A program made the position numbers and the translations under genes. Below, one piece after another: positions 33,014-44,479 of a DNA stretch of 64,000 nt. The notes beneath the pieces are model-generated. The model saw nothing but the letters and a program-made list of their open reading frames with translations, made no database searches and had not been told where the DNA came from. Position 1 is the stretch's first letter. Every line of letters starts with the position of its first letter. This DNA comes from Smithellaceae bacterium. Its GTDB lineage: Bacteria; Desulfobacterota; Syntrophia; Syntrophales; Smithellaceae. Location: assembly GCA_050008655.1 (NCBI GenBank), contig JBEKMF010000001.1, positions 1,445 to 65,444 on the forward strand, in the 5' to 3' direction.

Positions 33014-33904
33014 TTATGTTCTCCGGTATTGATTCTTATCACGGACAATTTGCCCTTGCGTCTCCAAACGTTCCAGATGCTTATTCACGAGAACGCGCTC
33101 ATTAAATTCAAAGAACTCCAGAGGTTTTCGGGGCTTGCCATAAATCAGCCACGCGGCGGCAATTTCTTCCAGTGTGTGCGGTTTTTTTAAAAATTCCAGA
33201 ATTTTCCTTTCGCGTTCATAGATAATATTTTCGTAGTTATCCCAGAGCTTCCCCGGATTTTCCTCAAACAAGCCGTCTTCATGACAGACAATCCACTTTT
33301 TTGCCGGTATTTTTTTCAATCGCCGGATTGATTTGATGGTTTCATCAATACTGGATTGCACATCGCCATACCAGGGACCGAATGCGGTCAAATCGTAATC
33401 TCCTAAAAAAAGAAGTTCTTCTGCGGGAAAAAAGAAAGACAGGTGGCCGGGGGTATGTCCCGGGGTAGCAATCGCCTGCACCTTAACTTGCCCCAGATCA
33501 ATTTCTTCTTCATTTCCGATAAAACGTGCCTGAGACTGAGGCTGAAAATTGAATACATCTCTCATCACTTGTTTCCAGTAAGTGCGGCTACGTTCATCGG
33601 AAATGCCGTACCAATCCAGAAAAATCTCGATGTCCGTGAGCGGCGGGAAATCCCGCTCGGAAACCCACAAAGGTGAGTCCCCAAAAAGATATACGTAATG
33701 GAAATGATCTTCATGCCAGTGGGAAAGCCAGACCATATCCACGCCTTCCTTATCGCGCAGGCGAGATAGCTTTTCCGAACTGCAGGCCGGATCGATGATA
33801 ACGCGAGCTTCATTACTTTCCACATAAAGTGAATGATTAAACGGATATTTGCCGCGGTTTTCTCCGCCAATAAAACGCAGGCGGCCAAACTGACGATCTT
33901 TCAT
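33014..33904 (-). CDS. MBL-fold metallo-hydrolase
   Basis: HWHEDH metal-binding motif, TPGHTPGH, and a C-terminal winged-helix-like tail. Confidence 0.8.
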   Translation of the reverse strand: MKDRQFGRLRFIGGENRGKYPFNHSLYVESNEARVIIDPACSSEKLSRLRDKEGVDMVWLSHWHEDHFHYVYLFGDSPLWVSERDFPPLTDIEIFLDWYGISDERSRTYWKQVMRDVFNFQPQSQARFIGNEEEIDLGQVKVQAIATPGHTPGHLSFFFPAEELLFLGDYDLTAFGPWYGDVQSSIDETIKSIRRLKKIPAKKWIVCHEDGLFEENPGKLWDNYENIIYERERKILEFLKKPHTLEEIAAAWLIYGKPRKPLEFFEFNERVLVNKHLERLETQGQIVRDKNQYRRT

Positions 33905-34184
33905 AAAAACCTCTTTAAATTATAGCCGCAGAATATATGAAATAATTAGAACAATTTCCATTATTAATTATCGGAAGTCTTACCAAATATTGCGCTTTTG
34001 AGTGAAACACATTCCCTGCTTTCGAACACTAGTATCGGACAAAAATGTAATGAAATCATTAACAATATTAGGATTGACTTTCAGTAATTCAGGAGTAAAA
34101 TTGATGTATAATTAAAGCGAAGTCAGGCTTTTTACTAAACATCATATTTACTGACCACCAAGTTTAAAATAAACGGGGAGGAAT

Positions 34185-34370
34185 ATGATCCATATCAAAG
34201 CCAGAGCGCTTTTACGTTTTACTATCCTTGTGCTTACCGCCCTTGCGGTCACCGCACTGACCGTCACCGGCTGCCAGCCGCAGAAGCAGGCAGGCCCACC
34301 GGAAAAAATCACCATAGCATATACGACCTTGATTAATACCGTTCTCGTCCATATCGCCATTGCTATACTC
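34185..34370 (+). pseudogene. possible remnant: lipoprotein signal plus first strand of an NMT1/SsuA-like substrate-binding protein
   Basis: LTALAVTALTVTGCQPQKQAGPPEKITIAYTT..NTVLVHIAIA looks like the start of a periplasmic binding protein and then degenerates. It lies at the left edge of the GC-rich segment. Confidence 0.3.
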
Positions 34371-34465
34371 ATCAATTCAACCTTTATCGGCAGAACCGCT
34401 ATGATACGCGTAACAGCGCTTCATGAAGGGTTCGAAATCATCGGAGGTGAGAGGGAAGCAATACT

Positions 34466-36838
34466 ATGAACGACGCAAACCGCACCCGCTCTTCCAAGGG
34501 GCTTCTGTTCGGTCTGTTCGCCATCGCCACGGGCGCCGTGGTACTTGTAGGTTGGCTGTTTGACATCCCCAGCCTGAAGAGTGTACTGCCGGGGTTCGTG
34601 ACCATGAAGGCCAACACCGCCGTGGGCTTCGTACTCGCGGGGTTGTCGCTGGCGCTGTTGGGATGCGCGGCCCGCTTTGTGTGGGTGCGGCAGTTGTCGC
34701 GAGTGTGCGCGTGCGCCACGGCGCTGCTGGGCCTCCTCACCCTCAGTCAGTATCTCTTCGGCGTGGACTTCGGCATTGACCAACTGCTCTTCCGAGAAGC
34801 GGCTGGCGCCGTGGGTACGCTGTCCTCAGGCCGCATGGCCCCCGTGACAGCGGTCAATTTCCTCCTGTTGGGTTGCGCGCTCTTCCCCGCAGGCTTCCGC
34901 CGTACCATCCCCGCCGCGCAACGTCTGGTCCTAGTTACGGGACTCATGGGTATGCTGTCTCTGATGGGGTACGCATACGGCGCAACTGAGCTTTTTGGCA
35001 TCGGCACCTACACGCAGATGGCCATCCACACGGCCGTGCTCTTTATCCTCCTGAGCCTGGGGGTGCTGTTACTGCATCCGGCGGACGGCTTTATGCGAAC
35101 AGTCACCAGCGATACCGTTGGCGGCTGGCTACTGCGGCGTTTGGCGCCGTTCGTAGTGGGGATTCCGCTGGTCCTCGGGTGGTTGAGGGTGCAGGGCGAA
35201 CAGAGGGGCATCTTCAATGGTCCATTTGGCGTGGCCTTAATGATGATGGTCATGATGCTCATTCTGACGGGCCTGATCTGGTGGACAGCCCATGCACTGA
35301 ACCGGCTCGGCACCGTCCGCCGGCAAGAAGATGCAGCCCGCGAATACGCCGAGAGCATCATCAACACCGTACGTGAACCCTTAATTGCTCTGGATCAAGA
35401 TTTAAGGGTAGTCACGGTCAGCCGCTCCTTCTATGAAGTCTTTAAGGTTAAACCTGAAGAGACCGTGGGACAGCTTATTTATGACCTGGGCAATAAACAG
35501 TGGGATATTCCCAAGCTGCGCGAACTGCTGGAAACCGTCCTTCCCCAAAAGGCGACTTTTGATAATTATGAGGTGGAACACGATTTTGCGACCATCGGCA
35601 GGCGCATAATGCTTTTGAATGCCCGGCAAATTAAAAGAGTATTGGGAAAAGAACGGATCATCCTCCTGGCCATCGAGGATATAACCGAGCGCAGGGAGAT
35701 AGAAATTGGGCTAGAAAAGACCCGAAAAGAACTGGAGATTATTAAAAAAACCGCAGATGAAGCCAGTGAATTCGCCGAGAGCATCATCAACACCGTGCGT
35801 GAACCTTTAATTTCTTTGGATCAAGACCTCAGGGTGGTCACGGTCAGTCGCTCCTTCTATGAAGTCTTTAAGGTAAAACCTGAAGAGACCGTGGGACAAC
35901 TTATTTATGACCTGGGCAATAAACAGTGGGATATCCCCAAGCTGCGGGAACTGCTGGAAACCATCCTTCCCCAAAAGGCAACCTTTGATAACTATGAAGT
36001 GGAACACGATTTTGCAACCATTGGCAGGCGCATAATGCTTTTGAATGCCCGGCAAATTCAAAGAGTATTGGGAAAAGAACGGATCATCCTTCTGGCCATC
36101 GAGGACATCACCGAGAAAAAGATGCTGGAAAGAGGGGTGGTGAAGGCAAGGGATGTTGCTGAAGCTGCCAACAAGGAACTGGAGACATTCAGCTATTCTG
36201 TTTCCCATGATTTACGGGCGCCGCTGCGGGGCATAGACGGATTCAGCCAGGCGCTCCTGGATGATTATAGCGACAAACTTGATGCCACGGGGAAAAATTA
36301 CCTGGAGCGCATCCGCGCGGGTACACAGCGCATGGGATTGCTGATCGATGATATGCTGAAACTTTCGCGGATAACCCGGGCTGAATTTAACTATGAATCC
36401 ATCGACTTGAGTAAAATGGTCCGGACAATTGCAGATGCATTTCAGAAAAATAATCCTGATAAGACCCGCAAGGTGACCATCCAGAAGGGTCTCATCATCC
36501 AAGGTGACTCTCACTCCATGCAGATTGCTTTGATGAACCTGATAGATAATGCCTGGAAGTTCACCGGCAAACAAAAACATGCCCGGATTGAATTCGGCAC
36601 GACTCTCCAGGAGGGGAAAATGGTCTTTTTTGTTCGAGATAACGGCGTCGGATTTGACATGTCCTATGTGGGCAAACTATTCGGCGCGTTCCAGCGTCTT
36701 CATACGATGGATGAATTTGCGGGAACGGGAATAGGCCTGGCAACTGTACAGCGAATCATCCACCGTCACGGGGGGAAAATCTGGGCGGAGGGCGAAGTTG
36801 GGAAAGGGGCAACCTTCTTCTTCACGCTGCCAGCGTGA
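34466..36838 (+). CDS. sensor histidine kinase: multi-TM N-domain, 2 x PAS, HisKA, HATPase_c
   Basis: About 290 aa of hydrophobic N-domain, two near-identical PAS modules, H-box (SYSVSHDLRAPLR), N box (DNAWKF), G1 (DNGVGF) and G2 (GTGIGLA). Confidence 0.9.
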   Translation: MNDANRTRSSKGLLFGLFAIATGAVVLVGWLFDIPSLKSVLPGFVTMKANTAVGFVLAGLSLALLGCAARFVWVRQLSRVCACATALLGLLTLSQYLFGVDFGIDQLLFREAAGAVGTLSSGRMAPVTAVNFLLLGCALFPAGFRRTIPAAQRLVLVTGLMGMLSLMGYAYGATELFGIGTYTQMAIHTAVLFILLSLGVLLLHPADGFMRTVTSDTVGGWLLRRLAPFVVGIPLVLGWLRVQGEQRGIFNGPFGVALMMMVMMLILTGLIWWTAHALNRLGTVRRQEDAAREYAESIINTVREPLIALDQDLRVVTVSRSFYEVFKVKPEETVGQLIYDLGNKQWDIPKLRELLETVLPQKATFDNYEVEHDFATIGRRIMLLNARQIKRVLGKERIILLAIEDITERREIEIGLEKTRKELEIIKKTADEASEFAESIINTVREPLISLDQDLRVVTVSRSFYEVFKVKPEETVGQLIYDLGNKQWDIPKLRELLETILPQKATFDNYEVEHDFATIGRRIMLLNARQIQRVLGKERIILLAIEDITEKKMLERGVVKARDVAEAANKELETFSYSVSHDLRAPLRGIDGFSQALLDDYSDKLDATGKNYLERIRAGTQRMGLLIDDMLKLSRITRAEFNYESIDLSKMVRTIADAFQKNNPDKTRKVTIQKGLIIQGDSHSMQIALMNLIDNAWKFTGKQKHARIEFGTTLQEGKMVFFVRDNGVGFDMSYVGKLFGAFQRLHTMDEFAGTGIGLATVQRIIHRHGGKIWAEGEVGKGATFFFTLPA
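35348..36115 (+). repeat. in-frame tandem duplication of a PAS module (2 x 342 nt, period 426 nt)
   Basis: 35348-35689 and 35774-36115 differ at about 24 of 342 positions by hand alignment. Most differences are third-codon-position changes, with only 4 amino-acid changes. Confidence 0.9.
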
Positions 36839-36895
36839 AGAAGCGTATCTCGTAATTCGTGAATGGTATCTCGCATATAGAGAAGCGATTGAATT
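36820..36895 (+). promoter_or_regulatory. structured junction element J1 (CTTCACGCT/AGCGTGAAG hairpin spanning the kinase stop codon, plus 2 x CGTGAA..GTATCTCG)
   Basis: A 9-bp perfect hairpin at 36820-36840 includes the kinase TGA. It is followed by AAGCGTATCTCG-taatt-CGTGAATGGTATCTCGC. Confidence 0.7.
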
Positions 36896-37270
36896 ATGGA
36901 AAAGGAAAACGGTAAGATAAAAAATTTCAGAGATCTGGATGTGCGGAAACTAGGTATGGAAATAGTCTTCGATTTTTATAAATATACAAAATCATTCCCC
37001 AAAGAAGAAGTATACGGTTTGGTAAGTCAAATGAGAAGAGCGGCTTTGTCGATTGCTTCCAATATCGCCGAAGGATTCAACCGTTACCATAATAAAGAGT
37101 ATCGTCAATTTTTATATGTTGCTCTCGGATCATGCGCCGAACTGGAAACGCAAATCGAGGTTAGTTTGCTTTTGGGATATATTACGCAATCCGCAAGATA
37201 TAAAATAATTGAGAAACTCGATTATGAATCGCGGATGTTGAGAAACTTGATAAAGCGCCTGAATGCGTAA
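36896..37270 (+). CDS. four-helix-bundle protein (23S rRNA intervening-sequence protein / Avd family)
   Basis: 124 aa with the family pattern F.DL.V...........Y....FPKEE.YGL.SQ.RRAA.SI.SNIAEG..R....E...FL..A.GS..E..T. Confidence 0.85.
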   Translation: MEKENGKIKNFRDLDVRKLGMEIVFDFYKYTKSFPKEEVYGLVSQMRRAALSIASNIAEGFNRYHNKEYRQFLYVALGSCAELETQIEVSLLLGYITQSARYKIIEKLDYESRMLRNLIKRLNA

Positions 37271-37333
37271 AGTGCGCCTCGTAGCTCGCGCTTCACGTTT
37301 CACGCTTCACGAAACACGAAAGGAGTTTTTATC
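37271..37333 (+). promoter_or_regulatory. structured junction element J2 (heptad array CTTCACG-TTTCACG-CTTCACG-AAACACG plus RBS)
   Basis: Only the right-arm polarity of the CGTGAAGCG/CGCTTCACG element is present. The 3' end (ACGAAAGGAGTTTTTATCATG) parallels J3 and J4 (ACAAAAGGAATTTATAATG). Confidence 0.7.
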
Positions 37334-37777
37334 ATGGATAACAGAATTATTTTGCTGGTGGAGGATAATCCCGATGATGTCGAGTTGACTCTAAGGGCAT
37401 TCAAGAAAAACGATATCTCCAATAAGGTGATCGTGGCCAAAGACGGTGTGGAAGCATTAGATTACCTTTTTGGAAAGGGAATGTATGCAGGACGGGAAAT
37501 AAATGATCTGCCCGTAGTTACCCTGCTGGATTTGAAACTCCCCAAAATAAGCGGCCTGGAGGTGCTGAAGGCCATCCGCCAAAATGAGTTCACCAAACTA
37601 CTGCCGGTGGTCATCCTCACGTCTTCAATGCATGAACGGGACGTGGTCAACGGGTATAAACTGGGCGTTAATAGTTATGTCCGCAAACCGGTTGACTTTA
37701 AAGAGTTTGTGGAAGCTATCAAATTTCTAGGCCTGTACTGGCTGGTCTGGAATCAACCTCCTCCTTTGGGAAAGTAA
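37334..37777 (+). CDS. single-domain response regulator (CheY-like receiver)
   Basis: Motifs ILLVEDNPDD, LLDLKLPK (phospho-acceptor Asp), ILTSS and KPV. Confidence 0.9.
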   Translation: MDNRIILLVEDNPDDVELTLRAFKKNDISNKVIVAKDGVEALDYLFGKGMYAGREINDLPVVTLLDLKLPKISGLEVLKAIRQNEFTKLLPVVILTSSMHERDVVNGYKLGVNSYVRKPVDFKEFVEAIKFLGLYWLVWNQPPPLGK

Positions 37778-37852
37778 TTCGTGAAGCGTTGTTCGTGAAG
37801 CGTATCTCGCTCTTCACGCTTCACGAGATGCGAGATACAAAAGGAATTTATA
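37778..37852 (+). promoter_or_regulatory. structured leader element J3
   Basis: 2 x CGTGAAGCG, GTATCTCGC, CTTCACGCTTCACG, CGAGAT-GCGAGATAC, then AAAAGGAATTTATAATG. There are several mutually exclusive 6-9 bp pairings. Confidence 0.75.
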
Positions 37853-40099
37853 ATGGCAAAAAAAGTTTTATCTGCACCAAGCAAGCTGAAACCTAAAATT
37901 AGCAAGCCGCAATTACTCCGGGTATTGGTAGTTGAAGATTCGGAAGACGATGCTCTGCTGATAATTCGTGAACTGAAAAAAGGCGGTTACAATCCGGTGT
38001 ATGAACGGATGGAAACAGCACCAGCGATGAAAAAAGCCCTCAGCCAGAAGCCCTGGGACATCATCCTTTGCGATTATAAACTGCCGAAATTCAATGCGCC
38101 CTCAGCCATTACCGTATTAAAAGAAACAAATATCGACATCCCTCTCATCATTGTATCCGGCACTATCGGTGAAGAGACGGCTGTAGAGTGTATGCGCTCG
38201 GGCGCCAAAGATTATGTCATGAAGAGTAACTTATCGCGTCTGTGCCCCGCCATTAAAAGAGAATTAGAAGAGGCAAAAACAAGAGTCCAACGCAAGCGGG
38301 CAGAAGAGGCGCTGCAGGTGAGCGAGGAGAAATATCGTGCCATTATTGAGAACATGCAGGAGGGTTATTTTGAACTTGACCTTGCCGGTAATTTTACCTT
38401 CGTTAATGACGCTGAGTGTATAAATCTGAGATATCCTCGAGAAGAACTGATCGGAATGAACAACAGGCAGTATCAAGATGAAACAAACGCTCAAAAAATG
38501 TATCAACTCTTCAGAGAGCTTTACAGAACAGGTGAACCGGTTAAGGCATTAGATGTTGAAATTATCAGAAAAAACGGGACGAAAGGTTTTAACGAAATTT
38601 CTGTATCTCTTGTCCGGGATGCAGAAGGTAAACCGATCGGATTTTGGGGTGTTTCTCGGGATGTCACCGAGCGCAAGCAGGCCGAGCAGGCGCTACGAGA
38701 GAGCGAAGCCCAGTATCGGCTGCTGGCCGACAACATGCAAGACCAAGTATGGCTCATGGACCTGAACTTAAAACCGACATACATCAGCCCATCTGTTGAG
38801 AAGATACGGGGATACACATTTGAAGAGATTGCGCAACTTCCGCTGGATAAGCAACTCACGGCAACATCCTTACAGTCGGCGATGGAGTTTTTCTCCATTG
38901 AGATGCCCAAGGCGCTGGCAGATCCAACCTATTTCGCGCTTCCACTGGAACTAGAGTTCTACTGTAAAGACGGCTCAACTCTATGGGTGGAAAGCACGTT
39001 TAGTCAAGTCCGGGACGAAAATGGTAAGCCGTTATCCCTACTGGGCGTCGGTAGAGACATCACCGAGCGCAAGCGAACGGAGGAAGCACTGCATAAAAGC
39101 GAACATCTACATAGAGTTATCACAAATAACATTCGGGACACCGTAGCGCTGCTGGACATTAATTTTCGCGCAACATGGATCAATCCGTCAGTAACCAAAA
39201 CACTAGGATTTACTCTGGACGAACTTGCCCAAGTCCCTCTGGAGCGGCAAGTAACGCCGGATTCTATGCAGCGTATGCAGGATCTCATGCTGGAGCATCT
39301 TACAGCAGAAAATTTGACCGATAAAAACAAGGAACTTAATGTCACCGGCGAGTTTGAATTTTACCGGAAAAACGGCGATATTTTCTGGGATGAGATGAAT
39401 ATATCGCTTCTGCGGGATACAGATGGAAAGCCCACCGGCTTTCTGACGGTAGGCCGCGACATCACCGAACGCAAACGAGCGGAGGAAGAACGTAAGCAGA
39501 GCTTTGAGCGGATGAGAAAAGCTCTGAGAGCCACGGTTCAAGCCATCTCTCTGACTGTGGAAATGAAAGATCCCTATACTTCGGGTCATCAACGGCGAGT
39601 ATCCGATCTGGCCCGGGCGATAGCGACAGAAATGGGCTTATCGGCAGACCGGCGGGACTTTATCCGCACTGCCGCCACTATTCATGACATCGGTAAAATA
39701 GCCATTCCATCGGAGATACTCAGTAAACCGACAAAACTGACTGATCTGGAATTCAGTTTGATTAAAACACACGCCCAGGCAGGCTATGATATCCTGAAAG
39801 ATATCGAATTTCCCTGGCCCGTGGCCGATGTCGTCCTTCAGCATCATGAACGGATGGATGGATCCGGCTATCCTCAGGGCCTCAAGGGAGCTAATATTCT
39901 TCTGGAGGCACGGATTCTGGCCATCGCCGACGTTGTGGAAGCCATCGCTTCCCACCGTCCCTATCGTCCGGCATTTGGAATTGATATTGCCTTGAAGGAG
40001 ATTTCCGATAATAAGGGTATCCTTTATGATGCAGTTGCCGTGGATGCCTGTCTGAAATTATTTCGAGAGAAAGGCTACGGCTTGGTTTTAAAAAAGTAG
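37853..40099 (+). CDS. response regulator with REC, about 4 PAS domains and an HD-GYP (c-di-GMP phosphodiesterase-type) domain
   Basis: REC (VVEDSEDD, LCDYKLPK), repeated PAS-end signatures (GVSRDVTERK, GVGRDITERK), and HD-GYP motifs (HDIGKI, HHERMDGSGYPQGL). Confidence 0.9.
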   Translation: MAKKVLSAPSKLKPKISKPQLLRVLVVEDSEDDALLIIRELKKGGYNPVYERMETAPAMKKALSQKPWDIILCDYKLPKFNAPSAITVLKETNIDIPLIIVSGTIGEETAVECMRSGAKDYVMKSNLSRLCPAIKRELEEAKTRVQRKRAEEALQVSEEKYRAIIENMQEGYFELDLAGNFTFVNDAECINLRYPREELIGMNNRQYQDETNAQKMYQLFRELYRTGEPVKALDVEIIRKNGTKGFNEISVSLVRDAEGKPIGFWGVSRDVTERKQAEQALRESEAQYRLLADNMQDQVWLMDLNLKPTYISPSVEKIRGYTFEEIAQLPLDKQLTATSLQSAMEFFSIEMPKALADPTYFALPLELEFYCKDGSTLWVESTFSQVRDENGKPLSLLGVGRDITERKRTEEALHKSEHLHRVITNNIRDTVALLDINFRATWINPSVTKTLGFTLDELAQVPLERQVTPDSMQRMQDLMLEHLTAENLTDKNKELNVTGEFEFYRKNGDIFWDEMNISLLRDTDGKPTGFLTVGRDITERKRAEEERKQSFERMRKALRATVQAISLTVEMKDPYTSGHQRRVSDLARAIATEMGLSADRRDFIRTAATIHDIGKIAIPSEILSKPTKLTDLEFSLIKTHAQAGYDILKDIEFPWPVADVVLQHHERMDGSGYPQGLKGANILLEARILAIADVVEAIASHRPYRPAFGIDIALKEISDNKGILYDAVAVDACLKLFREKGYGLVLKK

Positions 40100-40184
40100 C
40101 TGACGGTGGCCGGTGAAGCGTCGTTCGTGAAGCGTATCTTGTGCTTCACGCTTTACAAGATGTTAGATACAAAAGGAATTTATA
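40100..40184 (+). promoter_or_regulatory. structured leader element J4 (paralogous to J3)
   Basis: GGTGAAGCG-tcgtt-CGTGAAGCG-TATCTTG-tg-CTTCACG-cttta-CAAGAT-GTTAGATAC-AAAAGGAATTTATAATG. It carries a compensatory change relative to J3 (TCTCG/CGAGA becomes TCTTG/CAAGA). Confidence 0.75.
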
Positions 40185-43100
40185 ATGACAAAAAGAACTG
40201 AATCTACCGCAAGCAAGCCGCAATCACTTCGGGTATTGATGGTTGAAGACTCGGAAGACGATGTGCTGCTGATAATCCGTGAGCTGAAAAAAGGCGGCTA
40301 CAATCCGGTGTATGAATGGGTGGAAACCGCCACCGCCATGAAAAAAGCCCTTAAGGAAAAGCAATGGGACATTATTCTTTGCGATTATAAACTGCCGAAA
40401 TTCAATGCTCCCTCCGCCATTGCCCTGTTAAAGGAAGCAAATATCGACATCCCTCTCATCATTGTATCCGGAACTATCGGTGAAGAGACTGCTGTGGAGT
40501 GCATGCGTCTGGGCGCCCATGATTATATAATGAAGAACAACTTATCCCGTCTCTGCCAAGCTATAACCAGAGAATTAGAAGGGGCAGATTCAAGAAGCAG
40601 ACGGAAACAGGCGGAAAAGTCACTCCGGGAGTCCGAAGAGAGATTCCGCAGTCTGTTCGAAAATTCCTTAATGGGAATATCTGCGGCAACGCCTAACGGA
40701 CATCTGATTCACGCCAATCCAGCGTATGCCCTGATGTACGGCTATGACAACCCGGTACAGATGATCGCTGCGATAACCGATATTGGGCATCAGCTTTATG
40801 CAAACCCGGAGGAACGGAAGGAAGTGCTACGGCTTCTAAGCAAGAAGGGCTTCATGGAACCAAGGGAAGTGGAAGTGATTAAACGCGATGGAACGCGGTT
40901 TTCTGTTCTCGTTTCAGCGCGGGAAATCAGAGATGCCGGCGGCAAACTGCTTTACTACCAAGCCGCGCACCTGGACATTACCGACCGGAAGAAATTAGAA
41001 GAAATTCTGGTAAAAGAGCGGGAGGACCTTAAACTCATTATCGATGCTTCGCCGATCAGAGTTTTCTTCAAAGACAAAGAGGGGAAATTTATACGCGTCA
41101 ATAGGATATATGCCAAGACGCTCAACATGCCGGAAGAAAATATCATAGGAAAAACGGTCTTTGACCTTTATTCCCCGCAGATTGCTCAAAGCATGACTGG
41201 CGATGACCAGGAGGTTTTCCAATCACGACGTCCTAAACTTAACATAATAGAACAATATGAATCTGCCAGCGGCATACGATGGGTGCAGACAGATAAGATT
41301 CCGATCTTTGATAAAGATGGCGTTCCAGTCGGTCTCATAGGTTTTGCACAGGACATCACCGACCGGGAGAAATTGCAGGAAATTCTGGTAAAAGAGCGGG
41401 AGGACCTTAAACTCATTATCGATGCTTCGCCGATCATAGTCTTTTATAAAGATAAGGAAGGCAGATTTATACGCGTCAATAAGATATTTGCCGACGCTCT
41501 TAATATACGTGAAGAATCTTTCGTGGGAAAAACAGTCTTCGACTTTTATTCCCCGCAGATTGCTCAAAACATGACTGACGATGACCAGGAGGTTCTCCAA
41601 TCACGGCGCCCCAAACTTAACATAATAGAACAATATGAATCGGCAAGCGGCCTACGATGGGTGCAGACAGATAAGATCCCGATTTGTGACAAAGATGGTA
41701 TCCCACTCGCTCTTATAGGCTTTGCACAGGACATCACCGACCGTAAGCAGACAGAGAGGGCTTTACGCGAGAGCGAAGAAAACTTCCATATTTCTTTGGA
41801 TAATTCCCCGCTGGGAGTCCGCATTGCGACCGCAGAAGGCGAGACACTTTATGCCAATCAGGCGGTTCTGGATATGTTCGGCTACACAAGTATTGACGAG
41901 CTGAGAAAAACACCCCTGAAAGATCGTTATACACCGGAGAGTTATGCCGATTTCCAGATAAGAAAGAAAAAAAGAGGGCGGGGTGAGTTTGCCCCATCTG
42001 AATATGAAATAAGCATCGTGAGAAAAAACGGTGAGATCCGTCATCTTCGGGTTTTCCGCAAAGAAGTCATTTGGAACGGCGCAAAACAGTTTCAGATCAT
42101 CTACCAGGACATTACCGAACGCAAACAAGCCGAGGAGACGTTGCGTGAGAGCGAGGAGAAATATCGTAATATTCTGGAAAGCATCGAAGACGGTTATTAC
42201 GAAGTTGATCTTGCCGGCAACTTAACTTTTTTCAACGATTCGCTATGCCGTATAAACGGGTATCCGCGGGAAGAATTGATGGGGATGAATAACCGGCAAT
42301 ATACAGATGAATATAACGCGAAACAAATATTTCAAGCTTTTAATGAAGTTTATAGAACGGAAAAGCCCGCTACCGGATATGAATATGAGGTTATCAGGAA
42401 AGACGGCGCCAAAGCCTATATTGCCGCCTCTATATCGTTGCGCAAAGATGCAGCGGGTAAAAAAATCGGTTTCAGAGGGATTATACATGATATCACCGAG
42501 GCCAAGAGAACGGAGGAGGCGCTAAAGAAGAGCGAAGAAAAATACCGGCTAACTTTTGCGAGCACCTCTGACATCATTTTTACGGTTGATCCAGAATTAA
42601 AAGTTTCCAATATTACTCCCAGTGTCGAGAAAGTATTGGGCTATAGCCCTGAGGAATTGATCAACAAACACTTCTCGGATTTGAATCTTATGACGCCGGA
42701 ATCACTGGAAAGAGCAATCTTCAATGTGCAGCAAGTTTTCTCCGGTCTCGATGTCCCAAACGCTATTTACGAATTTATAACAAAGGATGGAGTAAAAGGA
42801 ATAGGCGAAGTTACCGGTTCGCCAATCATTCAAGAAAATAAAATCATTGGTGTCACCTGCGTGGCCAGAGATATTACCGAACGCAAGCTGGCGGAGACGG
42901 CGCTAACCAAGAGTGAAGAAAAATACCGCAGCCTCGTGGAAAACGCGCAGGAAGGTATCTACCAGTCAGCCGTCGGATATCTTACCTTAAACCCAGCACT
43001 CGCGCATATGCTGGGCTATGATTCCCCCGAAGAAGTCATGGCAACCGTCACCGACATTGCCCGGCAGCTTTATGTCAACCCGGATGACCGCAAGAAATTG

Positions 43101-43883
43101 CTGGAAATAGTAAATGAAAAAGGTTCTATAACGAATTTTGAAACAGAGTATTATAAAAAAGACGGCAGCCGTATCTGGGTATCCATCAACATGCACGCTG
43201 TCCGGGATGATCAGGGACACATTCTCTATTACCAGGGAATTAATCAGGACATTACGGAGAAAAAGAAAATAGAAGCGGAACGGCAGGAAAATATCGCACG
43301 CTTAAGAAAATCTCTGGGCGCCACAATTAATGCCATGGCTGTAACTGTCGAAACAAGAGACCCCTACACGGCAGGCCATCAACGAAGAGTGGCTGATCTG
43401 GCGCGCGCTATTGCCACGGAGATGAATCTCACCGGCGATCAAATCGACGGCGTGCGCATGGCCAGCATGATTCATGATATCGGCAAGATATCCATTCCTT
43501 CCGAGATTCTCACCAAACCGACTAAGCTTACCAACCTGGAATTTAATTTAATTAAAACGCACCCGGCATCCGGATATAATATCCTCAAAGACATTGAGTT
43601 CCCCTGGCCCATCGCCCAGATTGTTCTGGAGCATCACGAACGTATAGATGGCTCCGGTTATCCGAACGGCCTTAAGGGAGAGCAAATCCTCCTGGAATCG
43701 AAGATTATAGCCATAGCCGATGTAGTGGAAGCCATTTCTTCGCACCGGCCCTATCGCGCCGCCTTCGGCATTGATGCGGCATTGGATGAGATCACTAAAA
43801 ACAGGGGTATTCTCTTTGATCCTGATCTTGTGGATGCCTGTCTGCGGCTTTTCCGGGAAAAGAATTATAATCTGGCCGCTTGA
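40185..43883 (+). CDS. response regulator with REC, about 8-9 PAS domains and an HD-GYP domain
   Basis: 1232 aa. The REC domain is about 85% identical to that of the upstream paralog. It has many PAS-end signatures (DITDRK, DITERK, DITEAK, DITEKK) and HD-GYP motifs (HDIGKI, HHERIDGSGYPNGL). Confidence 0.9.
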   Translation: MTKRTESTASKPQSLRVLMVEDSEDDVLLIIRELKKGGYNPVYEWVETATAMKKALKEKQWDIILCDYKLPKFNAPSAIALLKEANIDIPLIIVSGTIGEETAVECMRLGAHDYIMKNNLSRLCQAITRELEGADSRSRRKQAEKSLRESEERFRSLFENSLMGISAATPNGHLIHANPAYALMYGYDNPVQMIAAITDIGHQLYANPEERKEVLRLLSKKGFMEPREVEVIKRDGTRFSVLVSAREIRDAGGKLLYYQAAHLDITDRKKLEEILVKEREDLKLIIDASPIRVFFKDKEGKFIRVNRIYAKTLNMPEENIIGKTVFDLYSPQIAQSMTGDDQEVFQSRRPKLNIIEQYESASGIRWVQTDKIPIFDKDGVPVGLIGFAQDITDREKLQEILVKEREDLKLIIDASPIIVFYKDKEGRFIRVNKIFADALNIREESFVGKTVFDFYSPQIAQNMTDDDQEVLQSRRPKLNIIEQYESASGLRWVQTDKIPICDKDGIPLALIGFAQDITDRKQTERALRESEENFHISLDNSPLGVRIATAEGETLYANQAVLDMFGYTSIDELRKTPLKDRYTPESYADFQIRKKKRGRGEFAPSEYEISIVRKNGEIRHLRVFRKEVIWNGAKQFQIIYQDITERKQAEETLRESEEKYRNILESIEDGYYEVDLAGNLTFFNDSLCRINGYPREELMGMNNRQYTDEYNAKQIFQAFNEVYRTEKPATGYEYEVIRKDGAKAYIAASISLRKDAAGKKIGFRGIIHDITEAKRTEEALKKSEEKYRLTFASTSDIIFTVDPELKVSNITPSVEKVLGYSPEELINKHFSDLNLMTPESLERAIFNVQQVFSGLDVPNAIYEFITKDGVKGIGEVTGSPIIQENKIIGVTCVARDITERKLAETALTKSEEKYRSLVENAQEGIYQSAVGYLTLNPALAHMLGYDSPEEVMATVTDIARQLYVNPDDRKKLLEIVNEKGSITNFETEYYKKDGSRIWVSINMHAVRDDQGHILYYQGINQDITEKKKIEAERQENIARLRKSLGATINAMAVTVETRDPYTAGHQRRVADLARAIATEMNLTGDQIDGVRMASMIHDIGKISIPSEILTKPTKLTNLEFNLIKTHPASGYNILKDIEFPWPIAQIVLEHHERIDGSGYPNGLKGEQILLESKIIAIADVVEAISSHRPYRAAFGIDAALDEITKNRGILFDPDLVDACLRLFREKNYNLAA
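40976..41731 (+). repeat. in-frame tandem duplication of a PAS module (2 x 378 nt)
   Basis: The protein repeat runs ITDR(K/E)KL(E/Q)EILVKEREDLKLIIDASPI...GFAQDITDR. A run of about 58 nt (GAAATTCTGGTAAAAGAGCGGGAGGACCTTAAACTCATTATCGATGCTTCGCCGATCA) is identical in both copies; the remainder is about 85% identical. Confidence 0.85.
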
Positions 43884-43894
43884 TGATATTTTAT

Positions 43895-44479
43895 TTATCT
43901 TGCAGTTTTTATAAACAGAGCTGATTTACTTAAGGAAATATGCGGACTATAGCCAAGAGTAAATCCTGTTTTTAAGGCTAAATGAACAGTCTGGGCGAAT
44001 TTTGCTTTTGTAACATGGATTTTCGGTTCCGCCATTAAAAATCTACCGTCATCTTTTAACAAAGAATGTAACTCGGCAAAAAACCGCACTTTGTCGGGAA
44101 CCTCGTGTACCATCCAGAAAGCCAAAATAAAATCCAGCTTCGTTTTAACTCCTAACGAATCTGAAGATGCCAACTGAAGCTCAATGCGCTGTAATACGTT
44201 AGCGCGTTGCGCCCTCTTTCTTATGGCGTTAAGCATTTCTTGTTGAATATCGGCGGCAATCACCCGCCCGCTATCATCAACCAGTTCCGCCAGAGGTATC
44301 GTAAAATAACCGATCCCGGGGCCGACATCCAGAACGGTGTCTCCTTCTTTTACGTAAGGCCGAAGAATTTCATACGGATCTTGCAGTAATTTACGAAATA
44401 CATTGTCAAAGGTAAAACACAGCCAACGCGGACAAACGTGTTTAAATCTAAAAAAGAATAAGTCGGAAATTTTGTTCAT
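43895..44479 (-). CDS. class I SAM-dependent methyltransferase
   Basis: Motif I (VLDVGPGIGYFT), post-I acidic residue (AADI) and 194 aa length. Confidence 0.8.
   Translation of the reverse strand: MNKISDLFFFRFKHVCPRWLCFTFDNVFRKLLQDPYEILRPYVKEGDTVLDVGPGIGYFTIPLAELVDDSGRVIAADIQQEMLNAIRKRAQRANVLQRIELQLASSDSLGVKTKLDFILAFWMVHEVPDKVRFFAELHSLLKDDGRFLMAEPKIHVTKAKFAQTVHLALKTGFTLGYSPHISLSKSALFIKTAR

Follow-up and report, generated by a model that had tools for sequence, protein, structure and literature searches.

In a 64,000-nucleotide stretch of contig JBEKMF010000001.1 from a Smithellaceae bacterium (positions 1,445 to 65,444; here called the window), we analysed a 124-amino-acid (aa) four-helix-bundle gene of the PF05635/TIGR02436 family (36896..37270, + strand) that lies between a sensor histidine kinase gene and a response regulator gene and is bracketed by arrays of 7-nucleotide (nt) repeats, or heptads. 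The gene and its arrays quite probably form one small, promoterless, single-gene cassette in sense orientation, the counterpart in a messenger RNA (mRNA) spacer of the intervening sequence (IVS) of 23S ribosomal RNA (rRNA). As judged by sequence comparison, the gene and its matched inverted arrays behave as a unit that is present or absent at homologous junctions. The initial annotation had described such genes as travelling in a hairpin-targeted or hairpin-bounded cassette. The evidence favours the bounded form, in which the arms travel with the gene, because one relative carries its own heptads at a junction that is bare in a close counterpart (L113 and L114, below); targeting to a pre-existing hairpin is less favoured.

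The 5' array lies at 36834..36874 (+ strand; CGTGAAG-aag-CGTATCT-CGTAATT-CGTGAAT-GGTATCT-cg) and was read from the sequence as CGTGAAGAAGCGTATCTCG at 36834-36852 and CGTGAATGGTATCTCGC at 36858-36874, with a period-7 segment detected at -52 to -35 from the start codon of the gene. The kinase stop TGA (36836-36838) falls within its first heptad. The 3' array (37289..37318, + strand; cg-CTTCACG-TTTCACG-CTTCACG-AAACACG, units at 37291-37318) is the complement of the CGTGAAG type, and Tandem Repeats Finder recovered a period-7 array there (37289-37311, 3.3 copies), the only one in the whole 64 kb. The window contains 17 copies of CGTGAAG where 6.1 ± 2.5 would be expected, and 10 of the 17 lie within 36820-40150 (3.3 kb). 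GTATCTCG was present in 4 copies against 1.09 expected, all of them in 36845-37838. The motifs therefore occur where the initial annotation had read them, and far above chance. Its view that they are the split halves of one hairpin was correct in that the arms are split around the gene, and needs amendment in that the arms are arrays of 7-nt units. The left arms that it had placed before the open reading frame (ORF) are there as the 5' array, and they are not the only arms on that side, since CTTCACG at 36820-36826 forms a palindrome with the first arm. This perfect 13-nt palindrome (CTTCTTCACGCTG at 36817-36829 and CAGCGTGAAGAAG at 36831-36843, + strand), identified by repeat search, spans the kinase stop codon.

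The 124-aa protein matched the Pfam family PF05635 with 117.3 bits (cutoff 33.8), residues 12-116 covering positions 1-105 of the 106 in the profile, and the NCBIfam model TIGR02436, the '23S rRNA intervening sequence protein' family, with 112.3 bits (cutoff 24). A sequence search of the PDB matched residues 11-110 to the solved structure 2gsc_A (XCC0516) with E = 4.5e-20; 2gsc is a homopentamer of four-helix bundles (PMC4990558). The ratio of nonsynonymous to synonymous divergence (dN/dS), measured against the copies at the same junction in the relatives L088, L091, and L104, was 0.06-0.11 at dS 0.8-1.2, which indicates that the gene is intact and under purifying selection.

Two intact, contiguous elements of the same kind were found elsewhere in the operon, as the initial annotation had reported. 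The gene-less heptad hairpin E1 (37778..37838, + strand) consists of (TTCGTGAAGCG)x2-TATCTCG on the left and CTTCACG x2-AGATGCG-AGATACA on the right, followed by the ribosome-binding site (RBS) of a 748-aa gene, and forms an 11-bp stem in the fold. The gene-less hairpin E2 (40110..40170, + strand), 5' of a 1232-aa REC-PAS-HD(GYP) gene, is a more degenerate paralogue of E1. Each of the two is followed by AAAAGGAATTTATAATG. E1 and E2 are the empty form of the gene-bearing element.

We also noted that the paralogy of E1 and E2 extends through the RBS into the first codons of the two REC-PAS-HD genes (window 37778-37860 and 40095-40192). In the relative L005 (12529-18862) a 1218-aa gene comes first and an 853-aa gene second, and the second spacer is without a heptad hairpin. 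The gene order of L005 and the window, taken with the paralogy of E1 and E2, indicates that the operon was rearranged or duplicated around the hairpins.

We compared the kinase-regulator junction in 80 relatives of the regulator gene, obtained from a metagenome scan with the regulator protein. The closest full-context relative of the kinase, L005, lies on an 833-kb contig and is syntenic on both sides, with RdgC, DUF374, YfiO, thioredoxin, PNP, ACT, AMP-binding enzyme, and lactamase_B protein genes upstream and with methyltransferase, acyltransferase/hydrolase, and GDPD genes, common to the window, downstream. It lacks the four-helix-bundle gene. Its 62-nt kinase-regulator spacer (cgtatgaCTCGTGAAGCGtatatcgtacgttaCGCTTCACGAGacactaaaaaggagggaagATG) holds one intact 11-bp hairpin, CTCGTGAAGCG-14 nt-CGCTTCACGAG (L005 11953-11991), of the same motif as the window arms, and is thus the kind of empty site that the initial annotation had envisaged.

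Other relatives showed further states of the junction. It was bare, with a 24-nt spacer, in L089 and L090, and held gene-less multi-heptad hairpins of 107-174 nt in L092, L100, and L111. L088, L091, and L104 carried the gene found in the window (82-86% identity) together with its heptads, and in L088 and L091 left-type heptads stand on both sides of it. L113 carried a 50%-identical PF05635 gene with AGGTGAT-type heptads upstream and AAACCTA-type heptads downstream. Three junctions (L094 894-1501, L099 940-1501, and L110 926-1501) were occupied by a GxxExxY gene (TIGR04256/PF13366, PD-(D/E)XK) of about 135 aa, with several GATTACnGnGAT units upstream and GATTAC.../ATCnCnGTAATC hairpins downstream, which looks like a second cassette type of the same architecture built on 12-nt repeats. 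The arms thus went with the gene as the initial annotation had supposed: the carriers of the same gene also carried arms, gene-less relatives had contiguous arms (L005, L092, L100, and L111) or none (L089 and L090), and split arms without the gene were found at none of the related junctions examined. On a tree of the regulator these states were intermixed, the window being sister to the occupied L088 and the next relatives bare or hairpin-only.

Two of these loci bear on how the arms arrived. The regulator genes of L113 and L114 (junction near 1054-1501 / 1483-1501) are 97.9% identical at the DNA level and the L114 spacer is bare, whereas identity falls to just 66% over the final 600 nt of the kinase genes, and the L113 cassette sits exactly at this homology breakpoint. 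The breakpoint and the bare L114 spacer argue that the cassette brought its own arms. In L104, an 80-nt direct repeat of 95% identity (179-258 and 639-718), made up of the hairpin loop and right-arm heptads, flanks the gene and looks like the footprint of a single-crossover integration. A perfect (CGTGAAG CGTGAAG CGTGTCT)x3-4 array is also present in L104 (95-178), 5' of the 80-nt repeat.

The flanks of PF05635 genes were then surveyed in the nearest 80 of more than 500 hits to the window protein (42-83% identity), with one genome per species. The surveyed loci span about 20 phylum-level groups, including Desulfobacterota, Planctomycetota, Nitrospirota, Omnitrophota, Verrucomicrobiota, Patescibacteria, Bacteroidota, Acidobacteriota, Fibrobacterota, and Proteobacteria, and 0 of the 80 lie in rRNA. 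Identity at lag 7 was 0.376 upstream and 0.372 downstream of the genes compared with 0.258 in control segments (77 loci), and lags 14 and 21 were also raised. A heptad array was present upstream of 62 of the 77 genes, downstream of 49, and on both sides of 43. The upstream unit was the reverse complement of the downstream unit, with at most one mismatch, in 28 of these 43 loci compared with 5.8% of controls. Of the upstream units 76% contained 'GT', and of the downstream units 90% contained 'AC'. The predicted duplex between the 100 nt upstream and the 100 nt downstream had a mean energy of -50.7 kcal/mol, compared with -35.6 kcal/mol for mismatched pairs (76 loci; Mann-Whitney p = 1.5e-17). 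Ungapped inverted repeats exceeded the control 95th percentile in 42 of the 76 flank pairs and direct repeats in only 6, with stems of up to about 30 bp in relatives. These results indicate that inverted heptad arms are a family-wide signature of PF05635 genes.

The sequence of the heptads followed the protein. CGTGAAG and GTATCTC upstream, with CTTCACG and GAGATAC downstream, flank relatives of 60-83% identity in Smithellaceae, Pirellulales, Phycisphaerae, Sedimentisphaerales, Nitrospira, and Omnitrophota. In more distant relatives this arrangement is built from other heptads (such as GTCGTCA, TAGCTTG, AGTGGTT, and AGTAGGA). Heptads were shared by 2-5% of pairs at less than 60% protein identity, rising to 37% at more than 70%. 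L017 has two paralogues separated by 400 nt, and each is flanked by a matched set of heptads of its own. The initial annotation had expected the same arms around other copies of the family, and these were found with a strict polarity. Clusters of the CGTGAAG family upstream of genes comprised 8 left-only, 8 left+right, and 0 right-only cases, and those downstream comprised 14 right-only, 7 left+right, and 0 left-only cases (Fisher's exact test by hand on 8/0 versus 0/14, about 3e-6). Twenty gene-less clusters of this family in the fetched loci were contiguous left+right. Of 73 genes, 56 had the same orientation as both neighbours, and the median gaps were 65 and 48 nt. Like the window gene, they are inserts without a promoter of their own in co-directional strings of genes. 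Mismatches between arms, read on the sense strand, were more often G:U than A:C (36 versus 19, p = 0.03), which gives weak support to a possible role in the sense RNA.

One contig (PHBK01000010.1, 106398-117545; L008 and L009) carries two 82-83% identical relatives 4.8 kb apart. Between the two genes lie several gene-less left+right clusters together with isolated left-only and right-only clusters (for example L008 253-308 and 582-646), and the isolated clusters might bracket other small genes.

An alternative that we consider unlikely is that the hairpins are the operon's own regulatory or processing structures, so that the arms belong to the site and an unrelated small gene landed in one of the loops. 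L005, with its intact hairpin of this motif at the corresponding site, agrees with this, and so does the history of E1. A hairpin is kept at the spacer between the regulator and REC-PAS-HD genes in all close orthologs, although with a variable number of heptads, and because heptad numbers slip between the E1 orthologs their columns are not reliably alignable. E1 is nearly identical in the window and L005, where the flanking coding DNA is 77-90% identical; the single difference is a C to T change in the right arm that still permits a G-U pair. Between E1 and E2, the change is on both sides of a pair (GTATCTCG/CGAGAT in E1, GTATCTTG/CAAGAT in E2). However, the same heptads surround relatives of the gene in unrelated loci and phyla, and the heptad type tracks protein similarity. 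At this very junction a different PF05635 gene has different heptads while a locus with a near-identical regulator is bare, and L089 and L090, which are equally close, are without a hairpin there. These observations favour a cassette that carries its arms.

Less probable again is that the four-helix-bundle gene has long belonged to the operon by vertical inheritance, for example as an accessory regulator, and was lost several times, and that the heptads are slippage products tuning the translation or stability of the neighbours. Strong purifying selection fits such a history, as does the retention of the gene at the junction in four lineages. Heptamer repeats are moreover over-represented and length-variable in intergenic DNA (PMC4692102, PMC4679880). 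On the other side, the same architecture recurs in about 20 phylum-level groups in co-directional strings (80 loci, in which the identities of the neighbouring genes were not catalogued), and three different cassette types occupy one junction. The two-sided complementarity of the heptads is also far above control, and slippage alone does not explain it.

That short G+C-rich words recur in a few spacers by chance or as a coding artefact, with no common origin, was refuted: although the CTTCACG at 36820-36826 is simply Phe-Thr codons of the kinase and the 14-mer CGTGAAGCGTGAAG occurs in viral contigs with no family gene nearby, 0 of 100 shuffles attained the CGTGAAG count, and the lag-7 signal, the excess of inverted repeats, and the left/right segregation hold over 76-77 independent loci. 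In the viral contigs with CGTGAAGCGTGAAG, a family gene was nearby in 0 of 80 fetched stretches and only 2 were hairpin-like. These viral copies are therefore mostly chance hits, and phages are no evident vehicle.

Several observations weigh against reading the gene and its arrays as a mobile cassette with a paired stem. The cassette encodes no recombinase, transposase, or nuclease, and no target-site duplication is definable in the window copy. The pairwise alignment of the window with L005 is ambiguous within the repeats, and a candidate CTCG/TCG duplication is too short to count. Divergence among the gene copies in the window, L088, L091, and L104 is about the same as that of the regulator gene, so vertical inheritance with repeated loss keeps the small probability given above, and the difference between the window and L005 may be either a gain or a loss. 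The tree of the 147-aa regulator was built by neighbour joining and carries no support values. The survey was seeded with the window protein and covers its nearest relatives, and the bias of G:U over A:C is modest beside 72 mismatches of neither kind. The arms of the window copy also pair poorly at long range. Their complementarity is modest, at 14 nt with 86% identity (36850-36863 / 37306-37319) and 8 nt with 100%, and the long-range duplex of -27.8 kcal/mol is marginal (z = -1.7; 32 of 500 shuffles were equally good). The minimum free energy fold of 36800-37340 (z = -1.1) does not use the long-range stem. The first 5' arm has a stronger local partner in the 13-nt palindrome at the kinase stop, where the local fold reached -28.9 kcal/mol (z = -3.7). 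The order of heptad types is unmirrored between the arms (A-A-B / A'-A'-B'-B'), an order that is as compatible with repeated protein-binding sites as with a simple RNA stem, or more so.

The initial annotation had proposed that the operon mRNA may be cleaved at this long-range stem. Complementary segments are present, as it implied, but the predicted fold of the window copy does not pair them with each other, and the long-range stem is decayed in this copy. Because the stem is short and a 13-bp local hairpin competes with it, RNA processing of the window copy is doubtful.

For the cassette as a family, the following steps may be proposed. Gain and loss would proceed by recombination within the heptad arrays. 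The repeat in L104 could have arisen when a circular unit of gene plus hairpin recombined with a resident hairpin by a single crossover, and recombination between direct repeats would in turn remove the gene, with a solo hairpin remaining as in L005. In polycistronic RNA the two arrays may pair, and by analogy with rRNA IVSs the long stems of relatives (up to about 30 bp) are probably cut by RNase III; such a cut would set the cassette mRNA free and break the coupling between the cistrons on either side. The protein itself probably recognises and binds its own cognate heptads.

A broader proposal, which we put forward tentatively, is that PF05635 and GxxExxY genes with matched inverted arrays of short repeats may be widespread, undescribed miniature cassettes that colonise hairpin tips and intercistronic spacers across phyla. 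Each protein would recognise its own heptad, rRNA IVSs would be a special case, and heptamer and STRR (short tandemly repeated repetitive) sequences would be the empty form. This picture joins three puzzles, namely the origin of rRNA IVSs and the role of their ORF, the over-representation of intergenic heptamer repeats with the purpose of STRR hairpins, and the function of the very large, multi-copy four-helix-bundle family outside diversity-generating retroelements (DGRs). The three have stood apart for decades, and they are brought here into one testable picture of a gene-plus-arm unit that turns over at operon junctions. Such cassettes split operon spacers, probably break metagenome assemblies, and may alter the coupling of kinase and regulator.

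The cassette lies in a co-directional string of genes on the + strand from about 34185 to 43883, as assigned from the ORF list and Pfam. The string begins with a 94-aa ORF, followed by the upstream cistron, the PAS-PAS-HisKA-HATPase sensor histidine kinase (34466..36838, + strand; Pfam, ORF list, and sequence). The downstream cistron, together with its RBS (AAAGGAG), occupies 37319..37777 (+ strand) and encodes a 147-aa stand-alone receiver-domain response regulator by Pfam; its ATG is at 37334, its ORF spans 37334-37777, and the 3' arms directly adjoin its RBS. The two REC-PAS-HD(GYP) genes of 748 and 1232 aa follow at 37853-40099 and 40185-43883 (+ strand). The sole good promoter-like site is at 34074-34101, 5' of the whole string, and within the operon promoter-like and terminator-like sites are no commoner than expected. 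The heptad hairpins were ruled out as intrinsic terminators because no U-tract follows them. No rRNA match was found in 33900-44000, and no Rfam family matched the heptad elements. The 1232-aa REC-PAS-HD gene contains a 378-nt tandem duplication (40973-41747; 2.1 copies, 86% matches), which presumably represents duplicated PAS domains.

The same locus is also present on a Joint Genome Institute (JGI) metagenome contig, and an identical 124-aa protein is on record from a Smithellaceae metagenome-assembled genome. The closest homologues of the protein (75-93% identity) are mostly on contigs of 0.5-3 kb, which would be expected if repeat-flanked, multi-copy cassettes break metagenome assemblies. 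The phage collection searched held no relative of the protein, and no PADLOC defence-system model matched either cassette protein (four-helix-bundle or GxxExxY). A figure legend in a terascale CRISPR survey names '23S rRNA IVP' among the proteins associated with CRISPR adaptation modules (PMC10910872), and tandem arrays beside PF05635 genes might contribute to that association.

Among known systems, an integron gene cassette resembles the window element in being a promoterless single ORF with an adjacent imperfect palindrome, inserted in sense into a transcribed array. The interchangeable cargo at one site is another likeness, as is the segment resembling a recombination site that is duplicated around the gene in L104. 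The candidate was rejected, since the heptads CGTGAAG and CGTATCT mismatch the GTTRRRY core and no integrase family was found among the called genes within 10 kb. Integron cassettes are stacked at attI, whereas the PF05635 cassettes occur one at a time, scattered through ordinary operons.

Avd, the accessory protein of DGRs, is a nucleic-acid-associated partner protein that shares its fold family with the window protein, the homologous four-helix-bundle family comprising cd16375/PF22296 relatives (PMC10053308). By this analogy, nucleic-acid binding by the window protein is a reasonable guess. Identity with a DGR Avd was rejected, because the window protein did not match NF033474, the Avd equivalog model, and none of the genes called within 10 kb is listed with a Pfam reverse-transcriptase family (no search for template and variable repeats was made).

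Repetitive extragenic palindromes and the mosaic elements built from them (REP/BIME), together with miniature inverted-repeat transposable elements (MITEs), are like the heptad hairpins short palindromic intergenic repeats between co-directional genes, and the gene-less copies could be non-autonomous derivatives of the gene-bearing element. The heptad hairpins differ from them in their tandem 7-nt units of lineage-specific sequence; no partner transposase, of the REP-associated (RAYT) type or other, was identified with them, and they have no defined target-site duplication. As for the traits of insertion sequences and MITEs, the window copy has inverted arrays, no transposase, and no clear duplication, and L104 has the 80-nt direct repeat.

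The heptad hairpins are closer to the 7-bp STRR repeats, which form hairpins of unknown function between cistrons in filamentous (heterocystous) cyanobacteria (PMC2670836). Like E1, E2, and the L005 hairpin, STRRs are made of 7-nt tandem units, lie between genes within operons, and are often paired with a complementary array. Heptamer repeats are more generally over-represented in intergenic DNA, with GGGAATC in Xanthomonas and GGGGAYT in Nostoc, and without known role (PMC4692102); TAACTGA repeats of Beggiatoaceae, cyanobacteria, and Bacteroidetes seem to be horizontally spread with no mechanism evident (PMC4679880). These repeats share with the window elements a length that varies between relatives and a patchy distribution suggestive of horizontal spread. 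The window differs in that its host is a member of the Smithellaceae (Desulfobacterota) and not a heterocystous cyanobacterium, and in that its arrays are tied to a specific gene family. The three repeat papers (PMC4692102, PMC4679880, and PMC2670836) mention no four-helix-bundle, S23p, or IVS gene, although our library was limited and an earlier description elsewhere is possible. A literature search on the heptad strings returned nothing relevant, and one on the family names returned only DGR, CRISPR-association, and Coxiella papers. The plasmid relatives of the 124-aa protein are mostly from Nostoc and Calothrix. On plasmid pNe_5 of Nostoc edaphicum (L168), two ribonucleotide reductase genes enclose a PF05635 gene that is antisense to both, with (AGTAGGG/AGTGGGG)x8 at 1395-1500 on one side of it and (TCCCTAC)x4-5 at 1855-1905 on the other. 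This copy suggests that the STRR-type repeats of cyanobacteria represent either the arms of such cassettes or their empty form.

The closest system is the IVS of 23S rRNA, known from helix 45 of Coxiella burnetii and from Leptospira, and the parallel that the initial annotation had drawn with it agrees with the literature. In Coxiella the IVS includes an S23p ORF of the PF05635 family, has a 28-bp terminal inverted-repeat stem that is cut by RNase III, and holds 3-4 tandem heptamers (GACAGAT) before the ORF whose number varies between strains; its origin and mobility were described as unknown (PMC4990558). RNase III cleavage is a feature of the Coxiella IVS, whereas for the window element it is doubtful. 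The window protein is under purifying selection, unlike the Coxiella ORF, which was judged dispensable and probably untranslated. The host site also differs, being an intercistronic mRNA spacer between two protein-coding genes and not rRNA, and the element is therefore not filed as an rRNA IVS. In published descriptions an IVS takes the place of the tetraloop of a helix. The window element shares with rRNA IVSs the ORF family PF05635/TIGR02436 and heptamers of strain-variable copy number directly before the ORF. Inverted arrays also bound its ORF, and a stem formed by them would be short and marginal in the window copy. It further resembles rRNA IVSs in its sporadic occurrence among close relatives and in replacing or extending a hairpin tip. 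Apart from its location, in every feature that could be tested the element behaves like an rRNA IVS.

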